64,000 nucleotides of DNA from Acutalibacteraceae bacterium (GCA_045538055.1 JAZSQQ010000077.1:20365-84364); one strand, 5' to 3'. Counted from the stretch's first letter, positions 29,097-46,465 are shown. Numbers and translations are program-made. Notes: a model not told the origin generated them from the sequence alone.

Positions 29097-30177
29097 TTTG
29101 CATTGTCTCCTTTCGGAAATTGTTTAGCTGATCTGCCATATCCGTTTGTGTAGACGGAAACAGATGAGCGTAATTATAAGTGATGTTGATGCTTTCGTGT
29201 CCTACACGTTCAGCAATCGCAACTGCCGAATATCCCATTTCTATTAAGAGAGAAATGTGACTATGTCTCAAATCATGGATACGGATACGCTTAATGCCTG
29301 CTTCATCTGCACCTCGTGTCATTTCACGATGCAAATAATTTTTTGATATATTAAAAATTCGATCATTCTTTTTAAGTCCATAAATTTTTGAAATATAAGT
29401 TTTAATTTCTTCAGCAAGAAAATCAGGCATTTTAATAACACGATTACTTTTTGTCGTTTTGGGGTCAGTAATAACATCTCGACCGTCTATGCGTTGATAG
29501 GATTTATTAATTGTAACTGTGCTATGTTCAAAATCGAAATCACCCGCCGTCAACGCTAACAATTCTCCTTCACGAATACCGCACCAATAAAGCATTTCAA
29601 AAGCATAGTATGATATCGGTTTATTCATCACAGCAAATGCGAATTTCTGATATTCCTCTTGTGTCCAAAACAACATCTCACGGTTTTTAGATTTACCCAT
29701 ATTACCAACCTTTGCTGCAGGGTTTTCTTTCAATCCATAGAACTTAACTGCGTGATTGAAAATTGCGCTAAGCTGATTGTGTAATGTTTTAAGGTATACC
29801 GGGGAGTAGGTTTGATGATTTTTGTTGCGAGCTTTAATCATTTCATTTTGCCAAGCGATAATATCCCTTGGCTGAATTTCATTTATTTTACGTTTACCGA
29901 AGTACGGCAGAATCTTCGTTCGAATAATATGCTCTTTAGTTTGCCAAGTATTTTCTTTAAGGCGAGTTTTCATATCCACCGTATAGGTTTCAATAAAGCT
30001 CGCGAAGGTCATACTGAGGTCAGCCTGACTCTTGTTCAAAAACTCACGCTCCCAAGCAAGTGCATCTCGCTTTGTAGGAAATCCTCTCTTGGTGCTTTGC
30101 TTTCGCTCTCCCTTCCAATCGGTTACTCGGTAGTAAACCATCCAGGTGTTTGTTTTTTCATCTTTGTAAACAGCCAT
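29086..30177 (-). CDS. int: Tyrosine site-specific integrase (element A)
   Basis: 363 aa. N-terminal arm-binding-type domain MAVYKDEKTNTWMVYYRVTDWKGERKQSTKRGF. Catalytic region HDLRHSHISLL...GHESINITYNYAHL. Confidence 0.9.
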   Translation of the reverse strand: MAVYKDEKTNTWMVYYRVTDWKGERKQSTKRGFPTKRDALAWEREFLNKSQADLSMTFASFIETYTVDMKTRLKENTWQTKEHIIRTKILPYFGKRKINEIQPRDIIAWQNEMIKARNKNHQTYSPVYLKTLHNQLSAIFNHAVKFYGLKENPAAKVGNMGKSKNREMLFWTQEEYQKFAFAVMNKPISYYAFEMLYWCGIREGELLALTAGDFDFEHSTVTINKSYQRIDGRDVITDPKTTKSNRVIKMPDFLAEEIKTYISKIYGLKKNDRIFNISKNYLHREMTRGADEAGIKRIRIHDLRHSHISLLIEMGYSAVAIAERVGHESINITYNYAHLFPSTQTDMADQLNNFRKETMQNVS

Positions 30178-30182
30178 TTATA

Positions 30183-30383
30183 TCACTTCCTTTCCTTATT
30201 TTTGGCTGCATCATAACATGTTTTTTCTAAAAAGAATTGTTTATTGACTTTGCCGGCCATTACGAAAAAGCCTTGTTCTTTTAATTCGGCGTTCATTTTT
30301 CGGATTACTTTATAAGCAAATGATTTTGAAATTTTGAGTGCTTGTGCAACATCGTCAGCAGTCATATAATAATCTTCAAACAT
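30183..30383 (-). CDS. xis: Excisionase-type small HTH DNA-binding protein (element A)
   Basis: 66 aa, MTADDVAQALKISKSFAYKVIRKMN. Lies immediately upstream of int, with an AAAGGAGA RBS. Confidence 0.7.
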   Translation of the reverse strand: MFEDYYMTADDVAQALKISKSFAYKVIRKMNAELKEQGFFVMAGKVNKQFFLEKTCYDAAKNKERK

Positions 30384-30416
30384 TGTACCATCTCCTTTCT
30401 TGATTTTTAATCACAT

Positions 30417-30547
30417 GACTTAACTTGATTTGTTTAGTGCATCTGTATTATACTAAACAAATTTGATTAAGTCAAGCGTGTTTTGAAAAAATATTAAACA
30501 AAAATGTTTATATTATATTGACTTAACTTAAACATTTGTGCTATACT
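30417..30547. promoter_or_regulatory. Divergent promoters with shared TTGACTTAA boxes (xis-int promoter and XRE promoter)
   Basis: Minus strand: TTGACT (30475-30470), 17-nt spacer, TATAAT (30452-30447). Plus strand: TTGACT (30518-30523), 18-nt spacer, TATACT (30542-30547). An imperfect inverted repeat (30417-30438 with 30452-30473) overlaps the minus-strand promoter. Confidence 0.6.
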
Positions 30548-30581
30548 ATCGCATATTGCATAAGCAAGGAGTGAAATTTCT

Positions 30582-31076
30582 ATGGCAATTGGTGAAAGAA
30601 TTCGATTTTTTCGAAAACTGAAAGGAATGACACAAAAGTTTCTCGGCGTTAAGGTTGGATTCCCGGAGAAAACTGCCGACATCCGCTTAGCTCAATATGA
30701 GTCCGGCACAAGAACACCTAAAGCAGATTTAACTGAAGCACTTGCCGATGCTTTGGGCATTTCTACTATGGCACTGAATGTTCCTGATATTGATACGGAT
30801 CTCGGCTTTATGCATACCCTCTTTGCATTAGAGGATATTTACGGCTTGAAGATCGACAAGCTCAATGACGAGGTTTGTATTCGCCTTGATAAAAACAGAG
30901 GAACATCTAACATTTCTTTGCTTGAGCGTTTTGCCGCTTGGCAGAAAGAAGCGGAGAAGTATCGCAACGGTGAAATCAGCAAAGAGGAATATGACCGTTG
31001 GCGTTATACATATCCCGAAGTAGAAGTACAGCGCACAAGGGATGCCCTTGATGCACTGCGAGATCAAGAGGGGTAA
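30582..31076 (+). CDS. XRE-family regulator of element A
   Basis: 164 aa, IRFFRKLKGMTQKFLGVKVGF...RLAQYESGTRTPK. Confidence 0.75.
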   Translation: MAIGERIRFFRKLKGMTQKFLGVKVGFPEKTADIRLAQYESGTRTPKADLTEALADALGISTMALNVPDIDTDLGFMHTLFALEDIYGLKIDKLNDEVCIRLDKNRGTSNISLLERFAAWQKEAEKYRNGEISKEEYDRWRYTYPEVEVQRTRDALDALRDQEG

Positions 31077-31087
31077 TTCAAAACAAA

Positions 31088-32176
31088 ATGGAAGATAAAG
31101 ATGCGTTGAATACAGCTTTAAAAGCGTTCTATGATGCCGAAGTTGAGCACCAGGAAAAGTTAAAGGAAAAATATCCTGATGATGTACCTAATACTGTGTG
31201 TAATCACGCTTTCATCCGTGGATATTCTTTAGAGAACAGTTTTGGACCTAAAGAAGGAGATTACAACTATTTTTGTCAGATAGGATTTGAAACCCTTTAC
31301 ATATGGACATATCAAAAGAACGTTAATTCTGCTTTGGTATCTGAAACCCAACTTGCAGTTAAAGAATTACCATATTGGAAAGCGGCAGCCAATCTAATAT
31401 GGCTCTCCCTGTCTTTTGCAAAATGTTTCGAGTGTGCAACGATAGACGATCTGCCCGATTATAAATGGATGTATTATTTTGATCCTTGTAAATCCACCAT
31501 TGACAACACTACTTTTTATAACTTATCGAGCATTGAGCAAAAATTTATGTCGACAGGAATCCATTTAAAACCAACGGAAATTGCTTCATTGGCATCGGTA
31601 ATTGAGTTACTCATACGAGATGATCAAGCATATACTGCACTTTCTCTTGTGTTTTCTGCCTTTTGCACTCACTCTTGTTGTCTAATCTGCGAAATGAGTA
31701 AGCATCCTTGGCATGACCATTTAGCTGAAGAACCCTCAATATGGCAACAAGCACAAATGTTGCCAAGCCTTGAAACAGCAGTTGTTCAATCATGCCGAGC
31801 TATTGAAGCTATAATTGGTGAACCACCAAATCAAAAAAAGCACGGAAAAGTATTTGCACATAAGCAGCACTGGAAAGACACAATTGGTATTGACCCCGAC
31901 GATATATTTGAAAAAGCAAATATGTCGTATTTAGATTTTTACTACAAACTTTTCTTCGACCTTCGAAACCCTTCTGCTCACAGTTACGGAAATATACACT
32001 ATGATTTGGCTCGTAAGCGAGCAGTTGAGTCTCAATGCTTTGCAGCGATAATTGTTCAAAAATACATTGATAAACATACTGTTGATAACGAAACAGCAAT
32101 TGATTCTCTAAAATTCAATAGAGAATTGCTTGATAAAGTATCAGAAACAATGTCAACCTGCATGACAAAAGAATAA
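31088..32176 (+). CDS. Hypothetical 362-aa protein with a possible HEPN-type Rx4H motif
   Basis: Good ORF directly downstream of the XRE gene. The motif FDLRNPSAHSYG (R-N-x-x-x-H) lies near the C-terminal third. No other recognisable domain. Confidence 0.5.
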   Translation: MEDKDALNTALKAFYDAEVEHQEKLKEKYPDDVPNTVCNHAFIRGYSLENSFGPKEGDYNYFCQIGFETLYIWTYQKNVNSALVSETQLAVKELPYWKAAANLIWLSLSFAKCFECATIDDLPDYKWMYYFDPCKSTIDNTTFYNLSSIEQKFMSTGIHLKPTEIASLASVIELLIRDDQAYTALSLVFSAFCTHSCCLICEMSKHPWHDHLAEEPSIWQQAQMLPSLETAVVQSCRAIEAIIGEPPNQKKHGKVFAHKQHWKDTIGIDPDDIFEKANMSYLDFYYKLFFDLRNPSAHSYGNIHYDLARKRAVESQCFAAIIVQKYIDKHTVDNETAIDSLKFNRELLDKVSETMSTCMTKE

Positions 32177-32179
32177 AAA

Positions 32180-32224
32180 AGAGCTAACAGACTTTGTAAC
32201 AAAAATCTGTTAGCTCTTTATTTA
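32180..32224 (+). terminator. Rho-independent terminator
   Basis: AGAGCTAACAGA ... TCTGTTAGCTCT followed by TTATTTAT. Confidence 0.7.
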
Positions 32225-32317
32225 TGAATAATCTGAAATTGTTGTCAAAACGTTGTCACGAGGCTTTTTGAAACCTCGAAAACCTAGTGTTTATGCGGGT
32301 TTTCAGCGTTTTTGGTA

Positions 32318-32329
32318 TTATTCCCACTC
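32318..32329. repeat. att core copy 1 (identical to the guaA 3' terminus)
   Basis: TTATTCCCACTC matches 61826-61837 at 12 of 12 positions. The upstream GGTATTA also resembles GGTTATTA at 61821. Confidence 0.75.
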
Positions 32330-32594
32330 ACTTAAGTTCGTTATTTTAAATTTTATGAAACCGCGTAAAATCAAGCTTTTTTAAAAGTCGGGACAGGGCA
32401 AAATGACCACTTTTGACCACTTGATACTGTACTTTCAGTATCACCGACACTTTTACCGGGCCGAAAACCAACCCCATCAGCCTGAAAATATGTATTTCAC
32501 GATTCCAAATGGATTGTACCACACAAAAATATAAATGTCAACACTTTAAAGTGATAAAGTACAATCTCTTAGTGTTTTGTTGTTATATCAGTTT
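32319..32594 (+). repeat. Copy 1 of a direct repeat of about 265 bp (element left arm)
   Basis: Aligns with 42968-43230. I count 4 mismatches in the first 165 nt or so, with more divergence after that. Contains TGATACTG (32422) and CAGTATCA (32436). Confidence 0.85.
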
Positions 32595-32770
32595 TAGTTT
32601 TATAAAAGCTGTTGTTTTTTCGTTTGGCTTTGAATTTTGCATAGCTCTTGAAACGGCAATATTTCTGCCGAATTGTTAAAAATAATCACGATATTATTGT
32701 ATTTTATTTTCTATTGTGATATTATCAAATGGGTATCTACATTCAATAGTATAATAAGGGCGATGATTCT

Positions 32771-33133
32771 GTGACTGATAAAGAATTAAAAAGGTTAAGC
32801 CGACTTGAATTGCTGGAGCTTCTTCTGACAGAGACCCGTGAAAACGAAAGACTCAGAGAAGAACTTGAAAAAGCAAAACAGGAAAACAGCATAGAAAAAA
32901 GTGCGGTGCTCCTTAACGAAACTGCAAAGCAACTGGATGAAGCTTTGAAAAAAGTTTCTTCGATGAGCAACATACCGACTGATGCAGGCAGTACCGCTAA
33001 AAAGTCTTTCGCGGGACATAAGATTTTCTCAGGTAATAAACCGAAATTGCTTGATGTTTTTTCAAAAGATATATTCAAGTTAACTGCAAAAGACCGTAAG
33101 ATTAAAAGCCAAAAGAAAACAAAAGCGAAATGA
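32771..33133 (+). CDS. Coiled-coil, lysine-rich hypothetical protein
   Basis: 120-aa ORF with a GTG start. KELKRLSRLELLELLLTETRENERLREELEKAKQEN. The coding call is supported mainly by its position upstream of the signal peptidase. Confidence 0.4.
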   Translation: MTDKELKRLSRLELLELLLTETRENERLREELEKAKQENSIEKSAVLLNETAKQLDEALKKVSSMSNIPTDAGSTAKKSFAGHKIFSGNKPKLLDVFSKDIFKLTAKDRKIKSQKKTKAK

Positions 33134-33174
33134 TTACGATTCTTCTGGTATATTAACGGAGGACATTTTTGTAA

Positions 33175-33822
33175 ATGGCATTCAAAAGAAAGAAAAAAGA
33201 ACTTCAATTTCCCACGTCGATGCAAATCGAAAAAGCGATTGCTAAAGAGCAATACAGCCGTAAGTACAAGAAGGTGCTGAAAAGTACTCTTTCTTCGCTT
33301 ATTGTTGTGGCTGCTATCGCCGTGCTTATTGCAACGCTTGCTTTGCCTGTTCTTCAGATTCAGGGAAGCAGTATGGAACCGACGCTTAATGACGAAGAAA
33401 TTGTTGTTCTTATAAAAACACCAAATCTGAAAAGGGGACAGCTTTGTTGCTTCTCTTATCAGAATAAACTTCTTATAAAAAGAATAATCGGTGTACCGGG
33501 AGATACAATCCTCATTAACGAAAAAGGTTTTGTTTATGTTAATGATGAATTGCTGGACGAACCGTACATTCTTGACCGTGCTCTCGGTGAATGTGATATC
33601 GATTTTCCTTTTCATGTAACCGAAAATCACTACTTCATTCTCGGTGACCACCGTTCTACATCAATCGACAGCCGAAGCTCAGTTGTAGGACTTGTAAGCT
33701 CCGAACAGATTGTCGGCAGGATATTCTTCAGAATCTGGCCTTTTGAGAAGATGGGCGACATAGATTATGAAGAATATCAGGAAAATATCGAAAATCCTGA
33801 TGAACAGAAAACCCAGGAGTAA
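33175..33822 (+). CDS. Type I signal peptidase (S26), pilus-locus associated
   Basis: 215 aa. N-terminal TM segment, catalytic Ser box GSSMEPTL, Lys box LIKRIIGVPGD, and LGDHRSTSIDSR. Confidence 0.85.
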   Translation: MAFKRKKKELQFPTSMQIEKAIAKEQYSRKYKKVLKSTLSSLIVVAAIAVLIATLALPVLQIQGSSMEPTLNDEEIVVLIKTPNLKRGQLCCFSYQNKLLIKRIIGVPGDTILINEKGFVYVNDELLDEPYILDRALGECDIDFPFHVTENHYFILGDHRSTSIDSRSSVVGLVSSEQIVGRIFFRIWPFEKMGDIDYEEYQENIENPDEQKTQE

Positions 33823-33857
33823 ATTGCTGAAAAAATAACAGAAAGGGGGAAGCAATT

Positions 33858-36800
33858 ATGTCAGGTGTGAATCATGAATATCTCAAAGACCATAAGTTGT
33901 TCAGAGTGCGCAACAAAAGAATAGTTGCTTTGTTCCCTGTTATTGCTGTTATTGTTGCAATTGCAGTTTTCTGGTGTCTTAAGCTTGTCGGTATTACGAT
34001 TACGAGTGACGCATTGTGCGAGCTTAATGAGCATACTCATATCAGCAGCTGTTATTCGGGCGACGAGCTTGTCTGCCTTAAGCCTGAGCATACTCATACT
34101 GCAGAATGCTTCCCTGACAAGACAGTTGACACGGAAACAACAGCAGACTGGCTGAAAACCTTAGAACATATAACAATCACAAATAATCTTTCAGAAAATC
34201 TTGTTGCTGTTGCAACGTCGCAGGTCGGATACAGCGAAAGCGACCGCAACTATGAATACAATGCATTCGCTGAAAAGAATAATTACACCCGCTACGGTGA
34301 ATGGTACGGAAGTCCTTACGGTAACTGGAACACGATGTTTGTTTCTTTCTGTATCGGACACGCAAATATCAATAATTCAGATTTGTTGACAAGCGCTTCT
34401 GCAGAATCGATGAGACAGGCATGGCAGAAAAAGGCTGTTTATTCTTCGGCTGAAAGCTATGACGCTCAGAGAGGCGACGTTGTTTTCTTCGATACGGACG
34501 CTAACGGTAAGGCAGACCGTACGGGCATTGCAATTTACAAAAGTGACAAGCTTCTTATGGTTATTGAGGGCGACGTTGACGGTGAGGTAAAGAAGGTTAA
34601 TTACACCAAAACAGATACTGTTCTCGGCTACGGTAAGACAAGCAAACTTTATGTTGCAGAGCATATCACCTCGGTTGATAAAGGCGAGTCAGATATCGGT
34701 ACCGTCAAGCCGACACTTGTGGGTAAGCTTAAGTATTACATCCCAAACAGTGCAACTCATACTACATACAATCTCAGACATTCAGTTCCGCAAAGTGTTT
34801 ACGACAGTGAACCGCTCATTATGATGGCTGCAGCAAATCAGGATATTACATACACCTCACAGCTTGAAGATGAAGTTGTTAATGCTGTGTTTAAAGACCT
34901 GAACGGCAATGTGCTTGGCAGCGGTTCAACTGTTCATATAGGTCAGTCTTACGTTGTTTCGCTTGAATTCAGCGAAATCAACAAGGGCAGTCAGTGGATT
35001 CAGTTTGAGCACAATGATGACGGATATCTAACATATCATATTCCGTCAAACCTCCATTGCGATGAGTTTGACAGCTGGCATAAAATTTCAGCAAAAACCG
35101 AAGCAGGAACTGTTGAAGATGTTGGTGAATATTATGTTGACGGCAACGGATTGTTGAAAGTTAAATTTTATGAAGATGCCAATGGTGTCAACTTCGTTGA
35201 TAAATACGCTAACGTTGACTTCACTATCGATTTCAGTGCAACGGTTGATGCAACACAGTCAGGCGATTCTACAGAAATAAAATTCAACGACGATATTAAA
35301 ATTAACCTCGAAATCGATGGCGAAGCAGGTATTATTGTTACAAAAACTCACGGTGAATACAACGAAGACGATAACACTCTTGAATACACTATCAGGGTCG
35401 ATGCAACGCACGGTCTTGTTAAGGATCTTGTTATCGATGACCAGATATGGGAAAACCATTATGCATTAAGAGACACAATCGTGGTAACAGATCTTGACGG
35501 TAATCTTATCGTTCCGCAGCCGACAGTCAGCGATCATCCTGATCAGTACGCGAACTCAGGCTTCAGGCTTTCCGGTTTTCCTGATTTTTCAGCGGGAGAA
35601 GGTTTCCTTATCAAATACAAATCAACTCCGTATGAAAATCTTCTTTCCAACGATTTCGTTGATATGTGGAACGGTATCGACGCTAACGGTAAAAATCCGA
35701 ATGGCGGAAATGTTTACGACTGGGGTGAAGACTGGATAAAGGTTGAGTTTACAAGGATTGAAAAAGACGGTAAAATGGTCGTTCTTACTGACGCTCAGGG
35801 CAACAAAATTCCTGTCATCGAATGGGGCGTTGGTATCAGAAAAACAGCCGAAAACCTTCAGGGTACTGTTATTATCGATACCCTCGGTGAAGGCCTGGCA
35901 TATTACACAGACCAACCGATTACGATCAAACGTTATGATGAATGGGGTAACAGACTCCCCGATACATACCTTAGTTGGGATCAGGTAACTATCACAAATA
36001 CTAACGGTAAAACTTCAATGCAGTTTGCCCTTCCTTCGGGTTATGCATTTGATCTTATTTACTACACCACTTTCCCACCGTTGGATGAAGGTGAAACAAA
36101 TACCCATACAAACAGAGTTGAAGCAATTATCAACACAAGACCTGAGGGTACTGAAGGTACGGCAGACGTTATCGGCTTCGTGCCTCACGTTGAGAAGCAC
36201 GCAAGCGGTAATGACGGTGAATATATCAACTTCGAAATTAAAGCGGAAGTTTCCGGTGCGATCAAGGATTGGGGTCATTTTTTCATCACTGACCTTGCAG
36301 CTTTCTGGGGATACAACAACGCAGAAGGATATCTTTACGTTCAGAACCTTCCCGAAAATCTTGTTGTAACCGCAACAACCGAAAGCGGACAGGTTATAAC
36401 ATTCACACCTTATGTAGAAGGCGGTCCGACAGAAAATACATATATTCTTGTTGCTCCTGCAGAGGGTAATCAGCACCACAGCTTCAATATTCTGTTTAAC
36501 ACAGCGGACACGAATCCTGACACAATGTTCGAATCATCAAAGTGGCTTTTCCACGAAGATGCAACACTCAAGGTTACCTACAGACTTCCGTTTGATGCTA
36601 AAACAGGTACTGAATGGATCGGTGAGCTTACAGGTGATAAAACTCTCGAAGATGTCCTTCTTGAAGGCTACAAAATGTCAAACGAAGTTTATATGAACTT
36701 TACACAGGCTATTCAGGGCGTTGCAAGTTCACAGTACGAATACTCCCCGATGATAACCAAAAAAGGTTATGTCAATGATAACGGAACGATTGATTACAAT

Positions 36801-38195
36801 GTTGTGTTTAATAACTCCGTTCCGGGCTCGGGCGGTCACAGCGGATATCTTAATAACCAGATATCAAACGTAGTGTTCCACGATGATTTTGACGAAAAGC
36901 TTGAATATGTTAACGGTTCGCTTGTTGTTACTTGTTATTCACCGTATAATGCAAACACATGGCTTGCGAAGTACAGGTACAACGGTACAGTATCAGGCAA
37001 TTCCTTTGACATACGTGCAGAAGATTTCCAACTTGTTGAATACAATACCGAAGCCGGATGGGGCGGACTTGCATATACTGCAAATTTAAAGGATTACTAT
37101 GAACACATCAACGCCGGCGGTAAGTATGTTTTTAACTATCAGCTCAAGGTTAAGGATGAGCACCTTACCACAACCGACCATTCAAAGTATCAGCTTGATA
37201 ACGTAGTTGAACTTACTTGGGGCAGAGACAACACATCGGGTCCTGCACACGAATCCGTAGAGTTTGAAACGGGACTTCTTGATAAGACGGTTGTTCAGGA
37301 AGATTCAAAGCTGTTGTTCGGTATTCACGTCAACCGCGGTGCGCGTGACATCCTTGAAGGTGCAGACACACTGACGATTGAAGACGTGATGACAGAAAAT
37401 CTTTCCGTTTATTGGGATTCAATCAAGCTCAAGTATGAGGACGTTCAGGGCAATTGGGTTGATTTTAATACCGAACAAAGCGAATATGAATACACAATCA
37501 CCTACGACCCTGCAAGCAATAAGCTGACTTTTGTTGTTCCTGATGAGCTTCATATTATAATTGATTATCAAACACTTATTACGGAAAGTGGTCTTGTTTC
37601 TGTCAGCAACTCAATTGTTGTTGACGGTAAGGCTGAAGTTTCCGATATCGTTGATGCTATCTTCCGTGTTGAAGACTACAGTGGTGATGCATCAGGTTCA
37701 AACCAAGAGATAACTCTTATCAAGCAGGACGGCATTACGAACCATCCGCTTCCGGGCGCAAAGTTTATGCTTTTCGGCCCGATGGGTGATGCAAATGCAC
37801 CGCTTCCGCCGGGTGTGACCAGCCGTACAATCACTGCAGAGGACGGCACGGTACTTGACTACATTGGCACTTACACAACGGGTACAGACGGAATCTGCAA
37901 TATTGAGACACAGTATCTTACTCAGGGCGGTCCGTATGCGTTTGTTGAGCATACTGCACCTGAAGGGTATGATCTTTTGGATAAGCCCGTATATTTCTAT
38001 TTCTACGATACGGATCCCGAAGGTTTTATCCAAAGCGTTACCACCCTTATCGCAATTGAAAATTTCAAGGGTTCCCCGATAATTTCGGAAACCGGCGGTA
38101 ACGGTGTTTTATATTCGGCAATGATCGGTTTTGCCTTTACGGCTTCTCCGATTTTGTATAGTTTTATTCGTCGCAAGAGGAAAATGAGGTTTTAG
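33858..38195 (+). CDS. Large pilus tip adhesin candidate: N-terminal TM segment, Cys/His motif pair, CHAP-like domain, multiple Ig/CnaB-like domains, C-terminal sorting signal
   Basis: 1445 aa. CELNEHTHISSCY and CLKPEHTHTAECF motifs. CHAP-like YTRYGEWYGSPYGNWNTMFVSFC...RGDVVFFD...ADRTGIA...IEGD. CnaB-like LPGAKFMLFGP...YAFVEHTAPEGYDLL. C-terminus ISETGG, then a hydrophobic helix, then RRKRKMRF. Confidence 0.75.
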   Translation: MSGVNHEYLKDHKLFRVRNKRIVALFPVIAVIVAIAVFWCLKLVGITITSDALCELNEHTHISSCYSGDELVCLKPEHTHTAECFPDKTVDTETTADWLKTLEHITITNNLSENLVAVATSQVGYSESDRNYEYNAFAEKNNYTRYGEWYGSPYGNWNTMFVSFCIGHANINNSDLLTSASAESMRQAWQKKAVYSSAESYDAQRGDVVFFDTDANGKADRTGIAIYKSDKLLMVIEGDVDGEVKKVNYTKTDTVLGYGKTSKLYVAEHITSVDKGESDIGTVKPTLVGKLKYYIPNSATHTTYNLRHSVPQSVYDSEPLIMMAAANQDITYTSQLEDEVVNAVFKDLNGNVLGSGSTVHIGQSYVVSLEFSEINKGSQWIQFEHNDDGYLTYHIPSNLHCDEFDSWHKISAKTEAGTVEDVGEYYVDGNGLLKVKFYEDANGVNFVDKYANVDFTIDFSATVDATQSGDSTEIKFNDDIKINLEIDGEAGIIVTKTHGEYNEDDNTLEYTIRVDATHGLVKDLVIDDQIWENHYALRDTIVVTDLDGNLIVPQPTVSDHPDQYANSGFRLSGFPDFSAGEGFLIKYKSTPYENLLSNDFVDMWNGIDANGKNPNGGNVYDWGEDWIKVEFTRIEKDGKMVVLTDAQGNKIPVIEWGVGIRKTAENLQGTVIIDTLGEGLAYYTDQPITIKRYDEWGNRLPDTYLSWDQVTITNTNGKTSMQFALPSGYAFDLIYYTTFPPLDEGETNTHTNRVEAIINTRPEGTEGTADVIGFVPHVEKHASGNDGEYINFEIKAEVSGAIKDWGHFFITDLAAFWGYNNAEGYLYVQNLPENLVVTATTESGQVITFTPYVEGGPTENTYILVAPAEGNQHHSFNILFNTADTNPDTMFESSKWLFHEDATLKVTYRLPFDAKTGTEWIGELTGDKTLEDVLLEGYKMSNEVYMNFTQAIQGVASSQYEYSPMITKKGYVNDNGTIDYNVVFNNSVPGSGGHSGYLNNQISNVVFHDDFDEKLEYVNGSLVVTCYSPYNANTWLAKYRYNGTVSGNSFDIRAEDFQLVEYNTEAGWGGLAYTANLKDYYEHINAGGKYVFNYQLKVKDEHLTTTDHSKYQLDNVVELTWGRDNTSGPAHESVEFETGLLDKTVVQEDSKLLFGIHVNRGARDILEGADTLTIEDVMTENLSVYWDSIKLKYEDVQGNWVDFNTEQSEYEYTITYDPASNKLTFVVPDELHIIIDYQTLITESGLVSVSNSIVVDGKAEVSDIVDAIFRVEDYSGDASGSNQEITLIKQDGITNHPLPGAKFMLFGPMGDANAPLPPGVTSRTITAEDGTVLDYIGTYTTGTDGICNIETQYLTQGGPYAFVEHTAPEGYDLLDKPVYFYFYDTDPEGFIQSVTTLIAIENFKGSPIISETGGNGVLYSAMIGFAFTASPILYSFIRRKRKMRF

Positions 38196-38205
38196 GATCT
38201 CAAGG

Positions 38206-38480
38206 CCTAGGGAAACAGTGCAAATCCGAACCCGTCTGAAAGCTGTTCTGGTCGTAGCTTTTTGGACGAATCGGGTTTGAATGGCGCAAGCCTTACTGTA
38301 TCCCATAAGCCACCGAAACGCCAAGAGAATCTTATTTCGGAAGTGAAGATTTTTACGGAGCTTTTCGGTACATAACTTCAAAACGCAACAGATTCTTTTG
38401 AATTTGCAGAAGTTTTAACGAAGGGACGGCAGAAATCCACCCAAAACAAACGGGCTCGGATTTTAACTGTTTCCCTAAGC
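38206..38480. repeat. 275-bp intergenic element bounded by imperfect inverted repeats of about 29 bp, between the tip adhesin and major pilin genes
   Basis: CCTAGGGAAACAGTGCAAATCCGAACCCG (38206-38234) against CGGGCTCGGATTTTAACTGTTTCCCTAAGC (38451-38480). A 12-bp perfect block (TAGGGAAACAGT) and a 9-bp block (AAATCCGA + CCCG) are separated by a 2x2 mismatch. Confidence 0.7.
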
Positions 38481-38543
38481 TAAAACCGATTGCGGCGGAA
38501 AAAACAAAAATTGCAAATTAAATTATAGAAAGGAAGTAAGATT

Positions 38544-40085
38544 ATGAAAAAATTATTTGCAGTTTTAGTAGCAATGGCTCTCGTTCTCACAATGGGAACA
38601 ACATTCGCATTCGCAGCGGGTGAAACAGGCACAATCACAATCAACCATGCTGTGACAGGCGCTGTTTACGAAGCTTACAAAATGCTTGACTTTGAACCGT
38701 CTAAGACAGCAGACCAGGGTATCTACACAATCGCAGATGATAAGTGGGATGCATTCTTCGAAACAGGAGAAGGCGCAAACTACTTTGATGTAACAGTACA
38801 GGGCGATGATAAGGTAGTTACACTCAAAGAAGATGTTGACGAAGTTGACCAGACTCTTGCAAAGGCAGCAATTGCTTACGCTAAGGCTAACTCTATTGCT
38901 CCTACAGCAACAGCACCGGAAGATGCACCGGCAACAAGTCCGGAGGAAACAAAAGTAACATTCGAGAATCTTCCGCTCGGTTACTATGCAATTGACACTT
39001 CACTCGGTACTCTTTGTGCAATTACAAACACAGACTCAGACGAAGACATCTGGGAAAAGAACGGCCAGCCGGGTATCGACAAGTACGTTCAGGAAGACAG
39101 CCTTGCAACACAGCCCACAGGCGGTTGGCAGAAGGTAAACGATGCTGACATCGGTCAGGTTGTTAACTACAAGTCAACAATCACAGTTGGCGAAGGCGTT
39201 ACAAACTATGTAATGCACGATAAGATGGAAGACGGTCTTACATTTATCGAAGACAGTGTAGAGGTTAAGATCGGTGACCAGGTTGTTTATCCGCCAAACT
39301 ACACAGTAGTTGTTGATCCTGATGACGGTGACACCTTTGATATCGTGTTCGAGGATGATTTCATTCTTGGTCTTGCAAAGAATTCAACATTCACAGTTTA
39401 CTACTCAGCAACTCTTGATGAGGACGCAGTTATCGGTAACGTAGAAAACGGTAACGAAAACGAAGTTTACCTTTCATACGGTGAAAACAACAGATGGGAA
39501 ACATCTAAGGATAACACATCAACATTCACATGGAAGATTGATATCTCCAAGGTTGACGGCGAAACAAAAGACAAGCTTGCAGGTGCTGAATTCGAACTTT
39601 ACAACACTGATCCTGAGGCTGAAGGCGCAACACCCATTAAGCTTGTAAAGATCAGCGACGGTTCTGTTGCTGAAGACGGCACAGTTACACCCGCAGTTTA
39701 CGAAGTTTATGACGGTACAGCTGAAGTAGAAACAACTACTACAATCGTAACTGATGCAAGCGGTGAGTTCTATGTACAGGGTCTTGACGAAGGTACATAT
39801 TACCTCAAGGAAACAAAAGCTCCTGAAGGATATAATATGCTTCCTGACCCCGAAACAATTACAATCGCAAGCACATACAATGAGGCTGATAAAGCTAACC
39901 TTCAGGCTGACTACACAGTTAACGGAAGTACTCCTGCAGTAATTGAAATTGAAAATAACTCCGGTTCATTGCTTCCTGAAACAGGCGGCATCGGTACAAC
40001 AATTTTCTACGTTGTAGGCGGTCTCCTTATGGTAGGTGCTGTTGTATTCCTCGTTTCCAAGAAGAGAATGGCAACATTTGCTTGA
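38544..40085 (+). CDS. Major pilin (LPXTG-anchored, CnaB/SpaA-type)
   Basis: 513 aa with an AAAGGAAG RBS. Signal peptide MKKLFAVLVAMALVLTMGTTFAFA. Pilin-motif-like IWEKNGQPGIDKYV. CnaB-like LAGAEFELYN...GTYYLKETKAPEGYNML. Sorting signal LPETGG, then a TM segment, then KKRMATFA. Confidence 0.85.
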   Translation: MKKLFAVLVAMALVLTMGTTFAFAAGETGTITINHAVTGAVYEAYKMLDFEPSKTADQGIYTIADDKWDAFFETGEGANYFDVTVQGDDKVVTLKEDVDEVDQTLAKAAIAYAKANSIAPTATAPEDAPATSPEETKVTFENLPLGYYAIDTSLGTLCAITNTDSDEDIWEKNGQPGIDKYVQEDSLATQPTGGWQKVNDADIGQVVNYKSTITVGEGVTNYVMHDKMEDGLTFIEDSVEVKIGDQVVYPPNYTVVVDPDDGDTFDIVFEDDFILGLAKNSTFTVYYSATLDEDAVIGNVENGNENEVYLSYGENNRWETSKDNTSTFTWKIDISKVDGETKDKLAGAEFELYNTDPEAEGATPIKLVKISDGSVAEDGTVTPAVYEVYDGTAEVETTTTIVTDASGEFYVQGLDEGTYYLKETKAPEGYNMLPDPETITIASTYNEADKANLQADYTVNGSTPAVIEIENNSGSLLPETGGIGTTIFYVVGGLLMVGAVVFLVSKKRMATFA

Positions 40086-40300
40086 AAGGATAAAGAATCG
40101 GACGATTCTGAGGAATCAGAAGATTCTGATACTTCCGAAGAATCCTAAGATTCCCGCAGCAGCTGCTGCACAGTAAAAACTCAACCCCTGCCGGCCTTGT
40201 GCCGGTGGGGGCGAATGAAAAAACATTTAAAATTCTGACCGTTGTTATCGAATTCTCGGTGGTAACGTTGAAAATTTTAAAATGAATCAAGAGATAAGCT

Positions 40301-41293
40301 ATGGAAGAGAAAAAAACTAAAAAGAAAATAAAGAAGAAAAAAGCCCCGAAAAAGAAAAGCGGACTCACCTCTACAATAGTACTGGTAGCAATCTTTTTTA
40401 TCGGGTTATGTGTTCTGCTTTATCCGACGATAAGTGACTTCTGGAACGAGAAAAGACAGTCCAAGGCAATTATGAACTATGATGAGTTGCTTGTTGACCT
40501 CACTCCCGAAGATTTTGCGGAATACTTTGAAAAAGCAGATAACTATAACCGTAAGCTTCGTCGTATGAACGCACCGATGTCGGGTTATTCCGCACTTGAA
40601 AAGGAATACTACTCAACGCTCGACATCAACGGTGACGGAATGATGGGTTACATCACTATTGAAAAAATCAAGGTGCAGCTGCCCATTTACCACGGCACAA
40701 GCGCAAAAGTTCTTAACTCTGCTGTCGGTCACGTTGAGGGCACAAGCCTGCCTGTCGGTGGCGAGAATACGCACGCTGTTCTTTCTGCTCACCGTGGTCT
40801 GCCGTCTGCAAAGCTTTTTACAAACCTTGACAAAGTCGAGGTCGGCGACGTATTCACAGTAACAATCCTCGACCGCACAATTACTTACCAGGTTGACCAG
40901 ATACGTGTTGTTCTGCCGAACAAAACAGAGGATCTTCAGATTCAGAAAGGTGAAGATTTCTGTACCCTTGTAACCTGTACGCCTTACGGTATCAATACTC
41001 ACCGAATGCTCGTCAGGGGAACAAGAATTGAGAATATCGAAGAAGCAAAGAAGATAAACGTTATTACGGAAGCTTACCTTGTTGACCCGTTCATCGTAAC
41101 TCCTGCCGTTGCGGCTCCGATGCTTGGCGGACTTCTTATCTTCCTTATGGTTAAGTCTTCAAAGGAAAAAAAGCTTAACGAGGCAAAGCAGAGAGAGAAA
41201 GCAAAAAACAACGGTCAGGAACTTCCCGAAGAACCGAAAAAGAAAGAAAAGAAATTAAAGAAAACTAAAAAGAATAAAAAGAATGAAAAATAA
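40301..41293 (+). CDS. Class C (pilin-polymerising) sortase
   Basis: 330 aa. N- and C-terminal TM segments. VLSAHRG (His), TLVTCTPYGINTHRMLVRG (the TLxTC Cys and the Arg). Confidence 0.85.
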   Translation: MEEKKTKKKIKKKKAPKKKSGLTSTIVLVAIFFIGLCVLLYPTISDFWNEKRQSKAIMNYDELLVDLTPEDFAEYFEKADNYNRKLRRMNAPMSGYSALEKEYYSTLDINGDGMMGYITIEKIKVQLPIYHGTSAKVLNSAVGHVEGTSLPVGGENTHAVLSAHRGLPSAKLFTNLDKVEVGDVFTVTILDRTITYQVDQIRVVLPNKTEDLQIQKGEDFCTLVTCTPYGINTHRMLVRGTRIENIEEAKKINVITEAYLVDPFIVTPAVAAPMLGGLLIFLMVKSSKEKKLNEAKQREKAKNNGQELPEEPKKKEKKLKKTKKNKKNEK

Positions 41294-41319
41294 ATTCAAA
41301 AAGAAAGGTGGTTAAAGGA

Positions 41320-42300
41320 ATGAAAATCAGAAAGATTGTATCGCTTGTTGCAATACTCATATCTTTTGCGATTGTTGCGTTTACTCTGTCTGCAACAGCT
41401 GCCGCTTTTCTTGACAAAAACGGAAGCGTAACTCTCCGCGTTACGGATTCAGAAACAGACATACCGCTGAAAAACGTAGCGTTCCGTCTTTACTTTGTTG
41501 CACGTGCATATGAAAGCGGAAACTCAATTCGTTATGAACTGATTCCACCGTATGACGAAAGCAAAATCGGAATAGACGATCTGCAGGACGCATCCTTGCC
41601 CATTCATCTTGCATATTTCGCAGAGTCCCGTTCTTTGCCATACACAGAAAAGAGCACGGATGAAAACGGTGTTCTCGTTTTTGAAGACCTTACACCGGGG
41701 TTGTATCTCATAGTTCCTGCTCAGGAGATTGAGGGCTGTTATATGCCGTCGCCGTTTGTTGTAAGCGTTCCCGAATACGACACAGTAAATAAAACTTGGG
41801 TGTTCGATGTTGACGCTTCTCCGAAAATTATCGGAGGTGTCGTTGACGGGGATGAGGATACTTATATAAGCGTTGTTAAAAAGTGGAAAACAGAAAAAGA
41901 AATCCCCGAAAAAATTACAATTGTCCTTCTTCGTGATTTCAAAGAATTTGCAAAAATCGAGCTGAACGAAGATAACAATTGGCATTACCGCTGGGACGGC
42001 CTTTCAAAGGATTTCGTCTGGAGTGTTGTTGAATCGCAGGTCCCCGACGGATACAAGGTTTGTTACGAAACCTCGTCTAACACAGTTACAATCATCAACA
42101 AGTATAACGAAGAAGGTACAACCGAACCGGGTGAGGGAACGACCCGACCGTCAGATGGCGAAGAAGATGACGACGGCAAGGATGACCTCGCTGATACGGG
42201 TCAGCTCAATTGGCCGATACCTGTTTTTGCAGTCGCAGGACTTTTACTCTTCAGCATCGGCTGGGCTGTATTGAATTTCGGTAAAAAAGAAAACGAATAA
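41320..42300 (+). CDS. Minor or basal pilin with CnaB-type domains and an LADTG sorting signal
   Basis: I prefer the ATG at 41320, which has a GGTGG RBS. Signal peptide present. LKNVAFRLYF...GVLVFEDLTPGLYLIVPAQ, VVKKWKTEKE...VPDGYKV. C-terminus LADTG, then a TM segment, then GKKENE. Confidence 0.8.
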   Translation: MKIRKIVSLVAILISFAIVAFTLSATAAAFLDKNGSVTLRVTDSETDIPLKNVAFRLYFVARAYESGNSIRYELIPPYDESKIGIDDLQDASLPIHLAYFAESRSLPYTEKSTDENGVLVFEDLTPGLYLIVPAQEIEGCYMPSPFVVSVPEYDTVNKTWVFDVDASPKIIGGVVDGDEDTYISVVKKWKTEKEIPEKITIVLLRDFKEFAKIELNEDNNWHYRWDGLSKDFVWSVVESQVPDGYKVCYETSSNTVTIINKYNEEGTTEPGEGTTRPSDGEEDDDGKDDLADTGQLNWPIPVFAVAGLLLFSIGWAVLNFGKKENE

Positions 42301-42320
42301 ACAGAAAGGGGAGCAATTGC

Positions 42321-42899
42321 ATGAAGAGAAAAGTCGGTATTTCGCTTATAACGATAGGACTGATTCTCATTTTCTGTGCGGCAGCTCTCCTTGTTTACAA
42401 CAATTACGAAAACCGTAGAGCCAAGGAGCATACAGATGCTTTGATGGGTTCTATTGCAGATGAAATCAACAGCAATCATTCAGGTGATGTTGACCCGTTT
42501 GATAAGGAAATGAAGGTTGTTGACATCAACGGATACGGATATATCGGATATATTTCTGTGCCTAACCTGAAAATCGATCTTCCTGTTATGTCTGAGCTGG
42601 ATCAGGGACGACTGAAAATAGCTCCCTGCCGCTATTACGGTTCAACAAAAACAGATAATCTTGTTATCGCCGCACATAATTACAGAAGTCACTTCGGATA
42701 TCTCGGAAGACTTGATATCGGATCTGCAATTTCTTTCACTGATATGGAGGGGAAGAAAAAATCTTACACCGTCACATCGGTTGAAATCCTGCAACCTTCT
42801 GATTCCGATAAAGTAAAGGATACGGGAGACGATCTTATTCTGTATACCTGTACGTACCGAGGTGTCAGCAGAATTGTTGTAAGGTGTTCTGAAGTATAA
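42321..42899 (+). CDS. Second, small sortase (housekeeping or anchoring type)
   Basis: 192 aa. N-terminal TM segment, IAAHNY (His), LILYTCTYRG (Cys), SRIVVRC (Arg). Confidence 0.75.
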   Translation: MKRKVGISLITIGLILIFCAAALLVYNNYENRRAKEHTDALMGSIADEINSNHSGDVDPFDKEMKVVDINGYGYIGYISVPNLKIDLPVMSELDQGRLKIAPCRYYGSTKTDNLVIAAHNYRSHFGYLGRLDIGSAISFTDMEGKKKSYTVTSVEILQPSDSDKVKDTGDDLILYTCTYRGVSRIVVRCSEV

Positions 42900-42901
42900 A
42901 A

Positions 42902-42937
42902 ACAAACAACCGAGATCGTTAGATCTCGGTTGTTTGT
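42902..42937 (+). terminator. Strong hairpin terminator closing the pilus operon
   Basis: ACAAACAACCGAGATC-GTTA-GATCTCGGTTGTTTGT, a 16-bp perfect stem, followed by TGT. Confidence 0.7.
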
Positions 42938-42967
42938 TGTAATGAAGAGCTTTGTTATACAAAACTC

Positions 42968-42977
42968 ATTCCCACTC
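42968..42977. repeat. att core copy 2 (10 nt)
   Basis: ATTCCCACTC, followed by the same arm sequence (ACTTAAGTTCG...) as at 32330. Confidence 0.7.
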
Positions 42978-43230
42978 ACTTAAGTTCGTTATTTTAAATT
43001 TTATGAAACCGCGTAAGATCAAGCTTTTTTAAAAGTCGGGACAGGGCAAAAAGACCACTTTTGACCACTTGATACTGTACTTTCAGTATCACCGACACTT
43101 TTGCCGGGCCGAAAAGCAACCCCATTTACCAAAAAATCTTCATTTCACAATTGCAAATGGATTGTACCACACAAAAAGCCAAATGTCAACACTTTAAAGC
43201 AATGAAGTTAAATGTGTTTGTTGTTATTCT
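42968..43230 (+). repeat. Copy 2 of the direct repeat of about 265 bp (left arm of element B)
   Basis: See 32319-32594. Contains TGATACTG (43070) and CAGTATCA (43084). Confidence 0.85.
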
Positions 43231-43254
43231 TACATAGCTAATTATCATAGTTAA

Positions 43255-45759
43255 TCATGCATTTTTAAAAGTTTCCATATAATTTGCAACAATATCGGTA
43301 CTTCTCAATTTATATTGAGTTATCAAGGTATTAATTCTACTTTCATCTAACCAGTTGTCATTTTGAGAAACAGCAATCACAAATTCATTCACATTCCTTT
43401 TAAGTGAATCAAGTTTATCAGGTGTAATAATCATCATATTAGGAATAGAAGTTGCTTGCCTATCAATAATTGTTGATTTGTGAACCATTATAGGGGTTGC
43501 TGAATAAAGATCACCATATTCAGCATCAAACCATCTTATAGAACCACCTAATTGATTACAATAATCTTTTGAAATTGTTTCTGAAACAGCTGCACTTTTA
43601 CATTCAATTACAAAATATTTGTTGTTTCCGACGGCCCAAAGATTATCAGGACCTTCTCCACAAGTCTCTTTATCTGGACGAGTTGATACAAAACCGATCA
43701 TTTCACCAATGGTTTGCAATGCATTCTCGAATTCATCAGCGTCAGCCGAAAACACAAGAGAAGAAGAGATTGCATTTGCATGGATTACATAATCGTTTTG
43801 TGAAATTTTATTTTTTTCTATATACTCACATACAGCCTTAGCTTGAGCAATATTATTGATTGATTTATCGTATCTAATTCCGTTAATAGGAGCAAGAGTG
43901 CTAATATTAACCGATCTTCCCGCCAGTAAAATTTGCTGCGCTCTTGATCCATCGATAAAATTCATAAATTTTGCTTTTGTTTGCAACAGATAACCTTTAG
44001 TCGATTTGGTTGCTTCACGATTAATAACTTGATCAATAAAATCAACAGATTTTTGCCATTGTAACATCATAGCAGAATCATACGCATTGCGTAAAGCGAG
44101 TGTATTATCATCAAACTGTGGTTCTGTTGAATACATAACACTAGATAAACGCTCTTTACTTTTTTGTATCCATTCAACATTCCTATTAAGTGAAAAATAT
44201 GCTAAGTCAAACACATCATCAACAGTAGGCTTGGGATTTTCTTCTTTTAACAACCACCACAACTCTTTTGATAAATTATATTGTTCTCTTGTAGCGTTAC
44301 TAAAAAATGATACTCCATTACTTCTAAGTAAGATATCAGCAAGATTATCACCCATTAAAACAACGCAACAAGAGTCACTATTTGACCTAACGCCTCGTCC
44401 CATTCCTTGCTCAATTCGCTGTATCTGTTCTCTTCTTAGAATGTTACTAGATGGATCTATACTTTGTATGTATTTGTCTTTTTCATTTCTTAAAGGTGGC
44501 AAGCCATCAATGATCAACATCCTACAGGCATCATCCGGCAAATCAATCCCATCATATCTATTAACAAAAACAAAAAGTCCAACATGATTATTTTTTAATG
44601 AGCTAACGAATTTATCTATATTGTCTTTTGTTGCAGTCCTCAAACCATCTGGATCCCAATATTTTGCCCTATCAAACGAAGGTACAATAACAACAACATT
44701 GAAATCTTGAGCAATTGAAAGCACCTTATTTTTGATATCGTCATTTGTTATTTCGTTATTGAGATGCCTAGGAAAAAGAATTAGCCTATCACCAATATCG
44801 TTTGCATTATCTGGCGATATCACCCCGCGCACATCTTCTTTATGTAAGCCAATTGCAGAAATAAAAACACTATCATCTGAAAGCGTTGCGCTCATAAAGA
44901 TTCTTCTTTGAGCATTCATAAAACTTTGAATTTTTGAAATAGAGATTCCCTCTGGTATTATTTCAATATATCTTGATGTTACGAAACAATCACAAGTTTT
45001 TAAAGAGTCATCAATCAAAGGCAGATTAAAATAAATGCAACGATTTGCTTCTTCATCGGTATTATACTTGGAAAGTAAAGTGTATACTTCCGCCTGCTTT
45101 TCTTGCCACATCCAAAATGGAATAATAAAGTTTTTTGACAAATCACTATTTTTTACAATATTAATGTATGAACTGCTATTATAACTTTTCCATTGTTCAG
45201 CAAATAAAGCAATTAGTTCCTTATAAAGATTATGCGTGGACGGTATTTTTACGGAGAATTGAGTTGTAATTGTATCAAAACAAGCATGAACATCATCCAT
45301 TAAAATACTACCAATAGGATAATTAGTTGTTTGTCTCATTCCAAAAACGCTGTGTCCATTAACCAAAGAAAAAATAGACATAACTAATATTGCCTTGTTC
45401 TCAGTATAGGCATAGTCCTCTCTATTCGTTACTGCTTGTATTCCAAGTTTTTTTGCTTCGTCGCATACTTGATCTACTAGATAATTATCTGGCACAACAT
45501 ATACAGCCGGACCTTTTCCTTCATTTAAACAACTTTGTAATATCATTAATCCAACAACAGTTTTTCCACTACCTGTATTCATTTTAATGATACAGTTTTT
45601 TTCGTTTCTTACATCGAACCATTTTTTCCACACCTCAGATTGAACATCCCTTGGATACTCGTATCTTTTGTCTTTCTGTGGCAAAGCCATAAAAATTTCT
45701 CTTGGTTCAATAGGAACAGATTTAGTTGTTCCACTTAGTTTAGAAAGTAATGAAGTCAT
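43255..45759 (-). CDS. SF2 DEAD/DEAH-type helicase fused to a C-terminal PD-(D/E)xK-like nuclease (single-gene helicase-nuclease defence candidate, Hna-like architecture)
   Basis: 834 aa with a GGAGGA RBS. Motif I MNTGSGKTVVG, motif II ILMDDVHAC, motif III FMSATLSD, motif VI EQGMGRGVRS. C-terminus has GPDNLWAVGNNKYFVIECKS (D...E-x-K). Confidence 0.75.
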   Translation of the reverse strand: MTSLLSKLSGTTKSVPIEPREIFMALPQKDKRYEYPRDVQSEVWKKWFDVRNEKNCIIKMNTGSGKTVVGLMILQSCLNEGKGPAVYVVPDNYLVDQVCDEAKKLGIQAVTNREDYAYTENKAILVMSIFSLVNGHSVFGMRQTTNYPIGSILMDDVHACFDTITTQFSVKIPSTHNLYKELIALFAEQWKSYNSSSYINIVKNSDLSKNFIIPFWMWQEKQAEVYTLLSKYNTDEEANRCIYFNLPLIDDSLKTCDCFVTSRYIEIIPEGISISKIQSFMNAQRRIFMSATLSDDSVFISAIGLHKEDVRGVISPDNANDIGDRLILFPRHLNNEITNDDIKNKVLSIAQDFNVVVIVPSFDRAKYWDPDGLRTATKDNIDKFVSSLKNNHVGLFVFVNRYDGIDLPDDACRMLIIDGLPPLRNEKDKYIQSIDPSSNILRREQIQRIEQGMGRGVRSNSDSCCVVLMGDNLADILLRSNGVSFFSNATREQYNLSKELWWLLKEENPKPTVDDVFDLAYFSLNRNVEWIQKSKERLSSVMYSTEPQFDDNTLALRNAYDSAMMLQWQKSVDFIDQVINREATKSTKGYLLQTKAKFMNFIDGSRAQQILLAGRSVNISTLAPINGIRYDKSINNIAQAKAVCEYIEKNKISQNDYVIHANAISSSLVFSADADEFENALQTIGEMIGFVSTRPDKETCGEGPDNLWAVGNNKYFVIECKSAAVSETISKDYCNQLGGSIRWFDAEYGDLYSATPIMVHKSTIIDRQATSIPNMMIITPDKLDSLKRNVNEFVIAVSQNDNWLDESRINTLITQYKLRSTDIVANYMETFKNA

Positions 45760-45816
45760 AAATAATCCTCCTAGTTGATTGGTCTTTTGCGCAAAACGTA
45801 TCCTTTATTGTATTTG

Positions 45817-45885
45817 TTATTTTAACTTTTTGCACAGCTACAGAATTTGCTCAAGTTTAGCAACAATGCGTTTTTATTGGTAGAA
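45817..45885 (-). pseudogene. Orphan remnant of an hsdS 3' conserved tail
   Basis: The minus strand reads AAACGCATTGTTGCTAAACTTGAGCAAATTCTGTAGCTGTGCAAAAAGTTAAAATAA, which translates as KRIVAKLEQIL*LCKKLK*. The intact hsdS tail at 46466-46525 reads KRIVAKLEEILPLCERLK*. About 70% nucleotide identity by eye. Confidence 0.7.
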
Positions 45886-45903
45886 AAATATTCTTTGTCG
45901 TGA

Positions 45904-46458: not shown

Positions 46459-46465
46459 AATACAA

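Follow-up and report, generated by a model that had tools for sequence, protein, structure and literature searches.

A sortase-pilus island bounded by attachment cores in a putative tandem array of mobilizable elements at guaA in an uncultured Acutalibacteraceae bacterium

We analysed a 64,000-nucleotide (nt) stretch of DNA from an uncultured ruminant-gut Acutalibacteraceae bacterium (GCA_045538055.1 JAZSQQ010000077.1:20365-84364), hereafter the window, in which a sortase-pilus operon occupies an island between two copies of a 12-nt core that also forms the 3′ end of guaA. Our reading, to which we assign a probability of about 0.7, is that a large family of tyrosine-integrase integrative and mobilizable elements (IMEs) uses the 3′ end of guaA as its attachment site, and that the window is a tandem array built by repeated site-specific integration, in the order decayed element A, pilus island, complete IME B and guaA, with the island an integrase-less member accreted with the IMEs. 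As far as sequence goes, comparison with related assemblies establishes the anatomy of the island, its accessory status, its exact junctions, its horizontal exchange and the turnover of IMEs at its right-hand core. These comparisons support the view of the initial annotation that the island is a cis-mobilizable element (CIME); cis-mobilization itself we infer. In this arrangement an adhesive heterotrimeric pilus, a trait for colonisation, would be coupled to the movement of mobilizable elements through a single hot spot, in a ruminant-gut family of Clostridia that is abundant but uncultured.

guaA lies on the minus strand, and its final codons with the stop (61826-61837) form the core that we call site 3, which in its plus-strand reading is TTATTCCCACTC. 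The same 12 nt recur at 32318-32329 (site 1), and a copy with one mismatch, TCATTCCCACTC, lies at 42966-42977 (site 2). The window holds three copies of the 12-nt core, compared with 0.34 expected by chance; a fourth core or a distal arm for element A was not found in 1-29 kb. The flanking cores described by the initial annotation were recovered at 32318 and 42966. Each of the two is part of a non-coding direct repeat of 254 nt (32320-32573 and 42968-43221, 90% identical overall), most of which is a distal arm as listed here.

32318-32329, no strand: site 1 core, TTATTCCCACTC; the proximal arm of A on its left, a B-type distal arm on its right
32330-32573, no strand: distal (P′) arm, copy 1; GATACTG...CAGTATC inverted pair at 32423-32442
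42966-42977, no strand: site 2 core, TCATTCCCACTC; attL of element B
42978-43221, no strand: distal (P′) arm, copy 2, the left end of element B; GATACTG...CAGTATC pair at 43071-43090

The copies at sites 1 and 2 differ at 26 positions in 256 nt. Numbered from the first base of the core, the first 160 nt have mismatches at 2, 52, 87, 138 and 151, so that the arm proper contains four of them (52, 87, 138 and 151, with A, T, A and C in the site 1 copy and G, A, G and G in the site 2 copy), and the claim that the first 165 nt or so of the island differ at four positions from the left arm of B holds for the arm proper. A putative arm-type motif, GATACT, is common to the proximal arm of B and both distal arms, whereas the arm of A carries GTTGTCA instead. 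Because of this difference, site 1 appears to be a hybrid junction, composed of the proximal arm of A, the core and a B-type distal arm. The left end of the island has the composition of an attL, a core followed by a distal arm in which the motif pair of B is unchanged, and is by sequence a candidate integrase site. As expected of a CIME, direct copies of the att core of the related IME B flank the island. Rfam and tRNA scans of the window gave no matches. We also observed a promoter-like sequence, TTGACA-17-TGnTACAAT (11 of 12 matches), on the minus strand from 32541 to 32513 and from 43189 to 43161, at the conserved inner end of both distal arms; it is also kept in a second class of arm (type 2) present in other assemblies. 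It faces across the core and, were the element circular, transcription from it would enter xis and int.

Between the core copies, the 10.6-kb island (32318-42977) contains seven plus-strand genes and nothing else, and these are the seven genes that the initial annotation had listed.

32574-32770, plus strand: leader and promoter region of the pilus operon, from sequence comparison
32771-33133, plus strand: orf120, a 120-amino-acid (aa) charged/coiled-coil open reading frame (ORF); no family match
33175-33822, plus strand: signal peptidase I (S26); family match
33858-38195, plus strand: putative tip adhesin, 1445 aa; C-terminal SpaA domain, IISETGG sorting-like signal and hydrophobic tail
38544-40085, plus strand: major (backbone) pilin, SpaH/EbpB family, 513 aa; E-box YYLKETKAPEGY, LPETG
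40301-41293, plus strand: class C (pilus-polymerising) sortase; TLVTC motif
41308-42300, plus strand: minor/base pilin, 330 aa; SpaA and Cna_B domains, LADTG
42321-42899, plus strand: second sortase, 192 aa; family match
42901-42938, no strand: hairpin with a 17-bp stem (-27.8 kcal/mol, z = -9.3), with 27 nt between it and the site 2 core

Family searches of the seven genes found no integrase, relaxase or replication (Rep) domain, in agreement with the earlier statement that no recombinase, relaxase or replication gene lies between the cores; every gene has a pilus or secretion function or is without a family match. With a class C sortase adjoining LPXTG pilins that carry isopeptide (SpaA/CnaB) domains, the operon has the gene content of a sortase-dependent pilus operon of the SpaA/Ebp type. 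The major pilin scores 123 bits on NF033902 (cutoff 95), and the class C sortase scores 278 bits on NF033745 (cutoff 160). A simple pattern search did not find YPK in the backbone pilin, where a variant motif may contain the linking lysine. The N-terminal ~1280 aa of the adhesin (33858-37700) had no sequence match in Pfam, NCBIfam or the PDB. A protein identical to the second sortase is encoded in at least 23 other contigs, and exact-protein look-ups returned no record for guaA (339-aa and 333-aa forms), orf120, the 513-aa pilin or the helicase of B. The operon is opened by orf120 in all relatives, and the leader is shared with operon copies elsewhere from about 32715 onwards; its first part, from 32574 to about 32715, occurs only in the att-flanked context. 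As a separate observation, several independent assemblies begin or end at about 32725-32753 or the equivalent position (L004, L005, L008, L010 and L007), 18-45 nt upstream of the orf120 start, and in L007 a 1-nt indel lies in a T/A run upstream of orf120, which may be a length-variable promoter tract.

A comparison of guaA loci in related assemblies indicates that the island is an insertion. The closest guaA protein in the collection (P0002, 99% identical) is encoded on contig L183, whose flank beyond guaA is 99.65% identical to 62846-64000 of the window over 1156 nt; on the strength of these two identities, we regard L183 as conspecific. Its junction runs from the stop of an ABC-transporter gene through a terminator and GGAATTATTCCCACTC into guaA, with no pilus operon and no element, and the genes next to guaA are, in order, two ABC-transporter genes, a Na+/H+ antiporter gene and an FMN oxidoreductase gene. 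L183 therefore reads as an empty attB, with an ABC-transporter gene as the native neighbour of guaA. Contig L018 (the same contig as L002), from a sister lineage, has the gene order of L183 in its flank, 91.3% identical to L183 over 7.3 kb, and at the core this native flank gives way to a distal arm and the pilus island, followed by another core with its arm and by an IME different from B. Since the gene order of L018 matches that of L183 up to the core, L018 corresponds to the empty site with an insertion at the core.

The same boundary was found in unrelated surroundings. The left flanks of the window, L018 and L020 are unrelated to each other, and all three meet the core exactly; a group of assemblies represented by L001 has a fourth left flank, with the junction within the core. 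Since L183 is empty and other, independent assemblies (L018, L020, L022 and the L001 group) also have the core-plus-arm repeat, the pilus operon does not belong to the conserved core at this position, and the repeat is not peculiar to the window. The operon also occurs at guaA beside IMEs other than B, as in L018. Up to and including the core, the left flank of site 2 is identical in the L001 group assemblies, L002 and L018, and 95% identical in L020, and to the right of it there are at least three kinds of element or arm, namely a type-1 arm with other cargo, a type-2 arm and a third sequence. Gut Clostridia metagenomes commonly contain integrases of this family at the guaA end, as well as two-core arrays; a metagenome scan with guaA returned only relatives at most 89% identical, which shows a hot spot and provides no comparison of strains. 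Together, the assemblies make up a natural series consisting of an empty site (L183), an island with an IME (L018) and a decayed IME with an island and an IME (the window). Such a series could be used for testing how accretion and cis-mobilization spread surface adhesins between species.

The island itself has been exchanged between lineages. Over its 3′ ~8 kb it is 97-100% identical in the window and L018, whose chromosomal flanks are only ~91% alike. Identity of the window to L018/L002 is 100% through the second sortase gene, the hairpin or terminator and the core; past site 2 the arm is ~91% identical, with the first difference 40 nt beyond the core, and the cargo further on is different. 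The 5′ 2.5 kb of the operon instead matches a third allele group (L011-L013), with 98-99.7% identity, and this group sits at a locus that lacks att sequences. The part resembling L011, L012 and L013 extends over 32771-34300, comprising orf120, the signal peptidase gene and the first ~450 nt of the adhesin gene, and the remainder is L018-like, so that the operon of the window appears to be a recombinational mosaic. A 3′ part from one group and a 5′ part from another point to exchange of the island between lineages and, in addition, to its reshuffling by homologous recombination.

The right end of the island is less complete than the left. The initial annotation had placed a terminator with a 16-bp stem 30 nt before the core as the close of the operon; a hairpin is indeed there, with a stem of 17 bp and a distance of 27 nt. 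Its T-tract is on the minus strand, so that it would terminate transcription from the guaA side. Comparable hairpins lie 10-45 nt from the core in the proximal arms of A and B and in the native empty attB, and the hairpin at 42901-42938 is absent after the sortase gene where the operon sits in a non-att context. On account of the guaA-directed T-tract, the similar hairpins near cores and the absence from non-att operons, the ~65 nt that end at the site 2 core are likely the stump of a lost integrase-proximal arm, and the hairpin also closes the operon. The description of the island as att-flanked and CIME-like is accordingly borne out by its cores, its attL and its lack of mobility genes, but not by its right end; because the integrase-proximal arm is missing there, only attL appears intact, and the island is not a textbook CIME with both attL and attR.

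The arrangement of sites suggests a way in which the array could work. The Int and Xis proteins of B would pair site 3, which consists of a proximal arm and a core, with either of the two distal arms and its core. Recombination of site 2 with site 3 would release B alone (18.9 kb), and recombination of site 1 with site 3 would produce a 29.5-kb circle carrying the pilus island and B with a normal attP. This composite circle could be passed on by the Mob_Pre relaxase of B through the conjugation pore of a helper and could reintegrate at guaA. B could later exit via site 2, leaving the island in place and site 2 as a landing pad for the next IME, which would explain the turnover of IMEs seen there. 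By itself the island would move only in cis or by homologous recombination, because it has no relaxase, no backbone oriT region and no proximal arm.

A number of observations weigh against accretion by site-specific integration. All of the comparison sequences are metagenome assemblies, and the junctions required for co-excision of the island with B (site 1 × site 3), like its transfer, are ones that we infer. The right end consists of the core, 27 nt and the hairpin, without a canonical attR, and in 42300-42977 we found neither a GATACT nor a GTTGTCA motif and no similarity to the proximal arms of A or B. There is no remnant or pseudogene of an IME backbone gene inside the island, so its presumed origin by deletion of an IME backbone is not demonstrated. 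The GC contrast pointed out by the initial annotation exists (0.41-0.44 in the island and 0.30-0.38 in 1-28 kb) but misleads as a foreign signal: the chromosomal guaA flank has a GC of 0.42-0.43, about the same as the 43% of the island, and it is the IMEs that are AT-richer, so that GC provides no evidence of foreign origin. As the operon is a mosaic, homologous recombination alone could explain part of the horizontal signal. The operon family is also widespread in Acutalibacteraceae, mostly at loci without att sites, and a signal-peptidase scan of species-representative genomes found 80 pilus loci, none of which had guaA or an integrase within reach. Lastly, the more distant L022 has the operon without a left arm, and the divergence of its operon from that of the window (72-84%) spans a range like that of its chromosomal flank from L018 and L183 (74-83%), which fits a long vertical residence of the operon in L022. 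The operon was probably captured from a chromosome at some point and has long been resident in some lineages.

Some of the same facts would be expected if the pilus operon were old chromosomal DNA beside the guaA hot spot, boxed in by independent insertions and never mobile, with the att copies belonging to its neighbours: the GC match with the guaA flank, the spread of the operon over non-att loci, the absence of a left arm from L019 as well as L022, the parallel divergence of operon and flank in L022 and the missing proximal arm at the right end. We nevertheless think this explanation unlikely, because the conspecific empty site has an ABC-transporter gene rather than the pilus operon beside guaA, because the distal arm of site 1 faces into the island and so places it, by att topology, inside an element, and because the island in L018 directly follows the native attB flank and is closer to that of the window (97-100%) than are the flanks (91%). 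We had at first favoured a trapped chromosomal segment, on the basis of the GC match, a TGA/TAA difference at site 2 and the native-looking terminator, and dropped it when the TGA/TAA difference proved inconsistent (L020 and L022 have TTA at site 2) and L183 showed an ABC transporter as the native neighbour.

Slightly less probable still is a cassette origin, in which homologous (Campbell-type) recombination through the ~250-nt arm brought the island into the left end of an IME and duplicated the arm, and in which the island exits in the same way, as an integrase-independent circle. The arm at site 1 is of the same type as the arm of the IME at site 2 in both classes (type 1 in the window, L018 and L020; type 2 in L001), as this would predict, and the Logan contigs L008 (10031-10503) and L009 (10087-10363) join the right end of the island, the core, an arm of the site 1 variant and the left leader of the island in a circle-like or tandem-like order. 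Such contigs may, however, come from graph simplification when strains share the island and differ in their flanks. The two arm copies are 85-93% identical within a genome and no more alike within than between genomes, a search for within-genome homogenisation of the two arms having found none for type 1, and in each of the window, L018 and L020, whose flanks are unrelated, the left boundary coincides exactly with the 12-nt core, which argues for site-specific exchange. The same contigs, and the match between the arm type of the island and that of its neighbour in both arm classes, hint that the island might leave and re-enter alone, with an IME integrase acting in trans to recombine site 1 with site 2 and yield a circle, lacking integrase and relaxase, that docks into the left end of an arm-matched IME; we consider this, too, improbable. 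If true, the island would be a cassette parasitising IMEs, which in turn parasitise integrative and conjugative elements (ICEs). Very improbable, in our view, is a misjoin of a metagenome-assembled contig at the repeated arm, such that the pilus operon does not truly lie between A and B. In favour of a misjoin, the sequence probably comes from a metagenome assembly, and breaks near the arm are seen in many related contigs; against it, the 26 differences in 256 nt between the arm copies are enough to resolve them, and independent assemblies of other samples and species (L018/L002, L020, L001 and L003) show the same order of arm, island, core and arm.

Strain-variable sortase-pilus operons bounded by repeats, like the island of the window, are familiar from Gram-positive pathogens, such as the rlrA islet/PI-1 of Streptococcus pneumoniae and PI-1 of Streptococcus agalactiae. 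Those pilus islands lie between insertion sequences or short direct repeats instead of att sites belonging to an integrase family, and they are not known to have a link to IME-driven mobilization. The reading of the island as an accreted, integrase-less member of the array leaves current concepts unchanged, because tandem accretion, CIMEs and guaA-targeting IMEs are already well described. The arrangement of the array matches the published model of CIMEs and accretion (PMC5704250; PMC12084326). A review defines CIMEs as retaining both attL and attR (PMC5704250), and work cited there describes them at the Streptococcus thermophilus fda locus, in tandem with ICESt1/ICESt3 (Pavlovic 2004; Bellanger 2011; via PMC5704250). 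Like those CIMEs, the pilus island is integrase-less, has att core copies of a competent neighbour on both sides, forms part of a tandem array at a housekeeping gene's 3′ end, and is predicted to be co-excised via the outer att sites. In contrast to them, its partner is an IME (Mob_Pre, no type IV secretion genes) rather than an ICE, it keeps the distal arm only, with the proximal arm a probable hairpin stump, its cargo is a pilus operon, and it is known from sequence alone.

Other tyrosine-integrase elements integrate at the 3′ end of guaA, including ATE-1 of Trueperella pyogenes, GIsul2 and the IncP island of Brucella suis (PMC5704250, table) and streptococcal IMEs (PMC5357655). The elements of the window share their target gene with these and likewise carry the last guaA codons and stop; they differ in their host, an Acutalibacteraceae member of the Oscillospirales, and in their backbone of Xis, Int, NikA, AAA_25, Mob_Pre, DUF6809 and TnpV. 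In Faecalibacterium, tandems of ICEs and IMEs with remnants have been reported, and composite arrays with decayed remnants, regarded as cis-mobilizable, are common (PMC12084326); the host belongs to the same bacterial order and occupies the same habitat as that of the window array, and the main text of that study does not mention sortases or pili (PMC12084326).

The elements on either side of the island, and guaA itself, have the following layout.

28770-32317, minus strand: decayed A-type element, from Pfam and arm comparison
28770-29096, minus strand: NikA-like gene of A (Pfam)
29086-30177, minus strand: tyrosine integrase gene of A (Pfam)
30222-30365, minus strand: Xis-like ORF of A
30582-31076, plus strand: HTH gene of A
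31088-32176, plus strand: 362-aa ORF of A
32177-32317: integrase-proximal arm of A, 141 nt; GTTGTCA twice at 32241-32258
42966-61837: element B as a whole, a complete IME from site 2 to site 3
43255-61351, minus strand: body of element B, from family searches
Cargo of B: a helicase, and HsdS (46466-47896), HsdM (47893-49413) and HsdR (50066-52447) of a type I restriction-modification (R-M) system
Cargo of B: Mrr (49419-50048) and GmrSD (53503-55350)
Backbone of B: TnpV (56435-56788), DUF6809 (56801-57067) and Mob_Pre relaxase (57074-58267)
Backbone of B: AAA_25 (58525-59667), NikA-like (59660-60136), tyrosine integrase (59985-61052) and Xis-like (61070-61351)
61352-61825, no strand: integrase-proximal (P) arm of B, 474 nt; TGATACT direct repeat, two copies, at 61750-61766
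61826-62845, minus strand: guaA, GMP synthase ATP-pyrophosphatase subunit, 333 aa as called in relatives; its last 12 nt are the site 3 core

With its own relaxase, no conjugation pore, a position at the 3′ end of guaA and a core duplicated at the far end, element B has the features of a complete guaA-targeting tyrosine-integrase IME. Its integrase contains Phage_integrase, SAM_3 and Arm-DNA-bind_4 domains, and the adjoining Xis-like ORF of 93 aa resembles the Xis of ICEBs1 (E = 7e-11, below the curated cutoff). No VirB4 or coupling-protein domain was found among the ORFs of B. Its backbone is 97% identical in L175 and L177, where it adjoins guaA with other cargo. The cargo of B at 43255-55350 is a defence island, in which HsdS has an internal 188-nt repeat (46960-47147 and 47683-47870), and IMEs at site 2 in other contigs carry other defence sets (DUF3800, DUF4238 and other R-M systems). 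The integrases of A and B are 63% identical as proteins. Element A appears to be decayed, having kept the Xis-like, integrase and NikA-like genes and lost AAA_25 and Mob_Pre; tblastn found no second copy of either gene in the window. The proximal arm of A is 96-99% identical to arms that directly adjoin guaA in L176, L185 and L186, and L185 contains a complete A-type element.

If L183 represents the empty state, the inserted array exceeds 61.8 kb and continues past the left end of the window. Many human-gut relatives (L118-L173; for example, L123 at 9039-10978) have two tandem guaA-like paralogues, ~53% and ~84% identical to guaA of the window; in these relatives, the IMEs lie at the 3′ end of the second paralogue, and two-core arrays are frequent. 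Further to the left in the window, 16691-20063 holds an Agr-like quorum-sensing set consisting of AgrB (19473-20063), a GHKL histidine kinase (16691-17983) and a LytTR response regulator (17984-18721). This set adjoins a 2141-aa S8 subtilase with BspA-type leucine-rich repeats (10062-16487), and the block has a GC of ~30%. The minus strand of 1-5700 is occupied by an open frame that has a signal peptide, exceeds 1740 aa and continues beyond the left end of the window.

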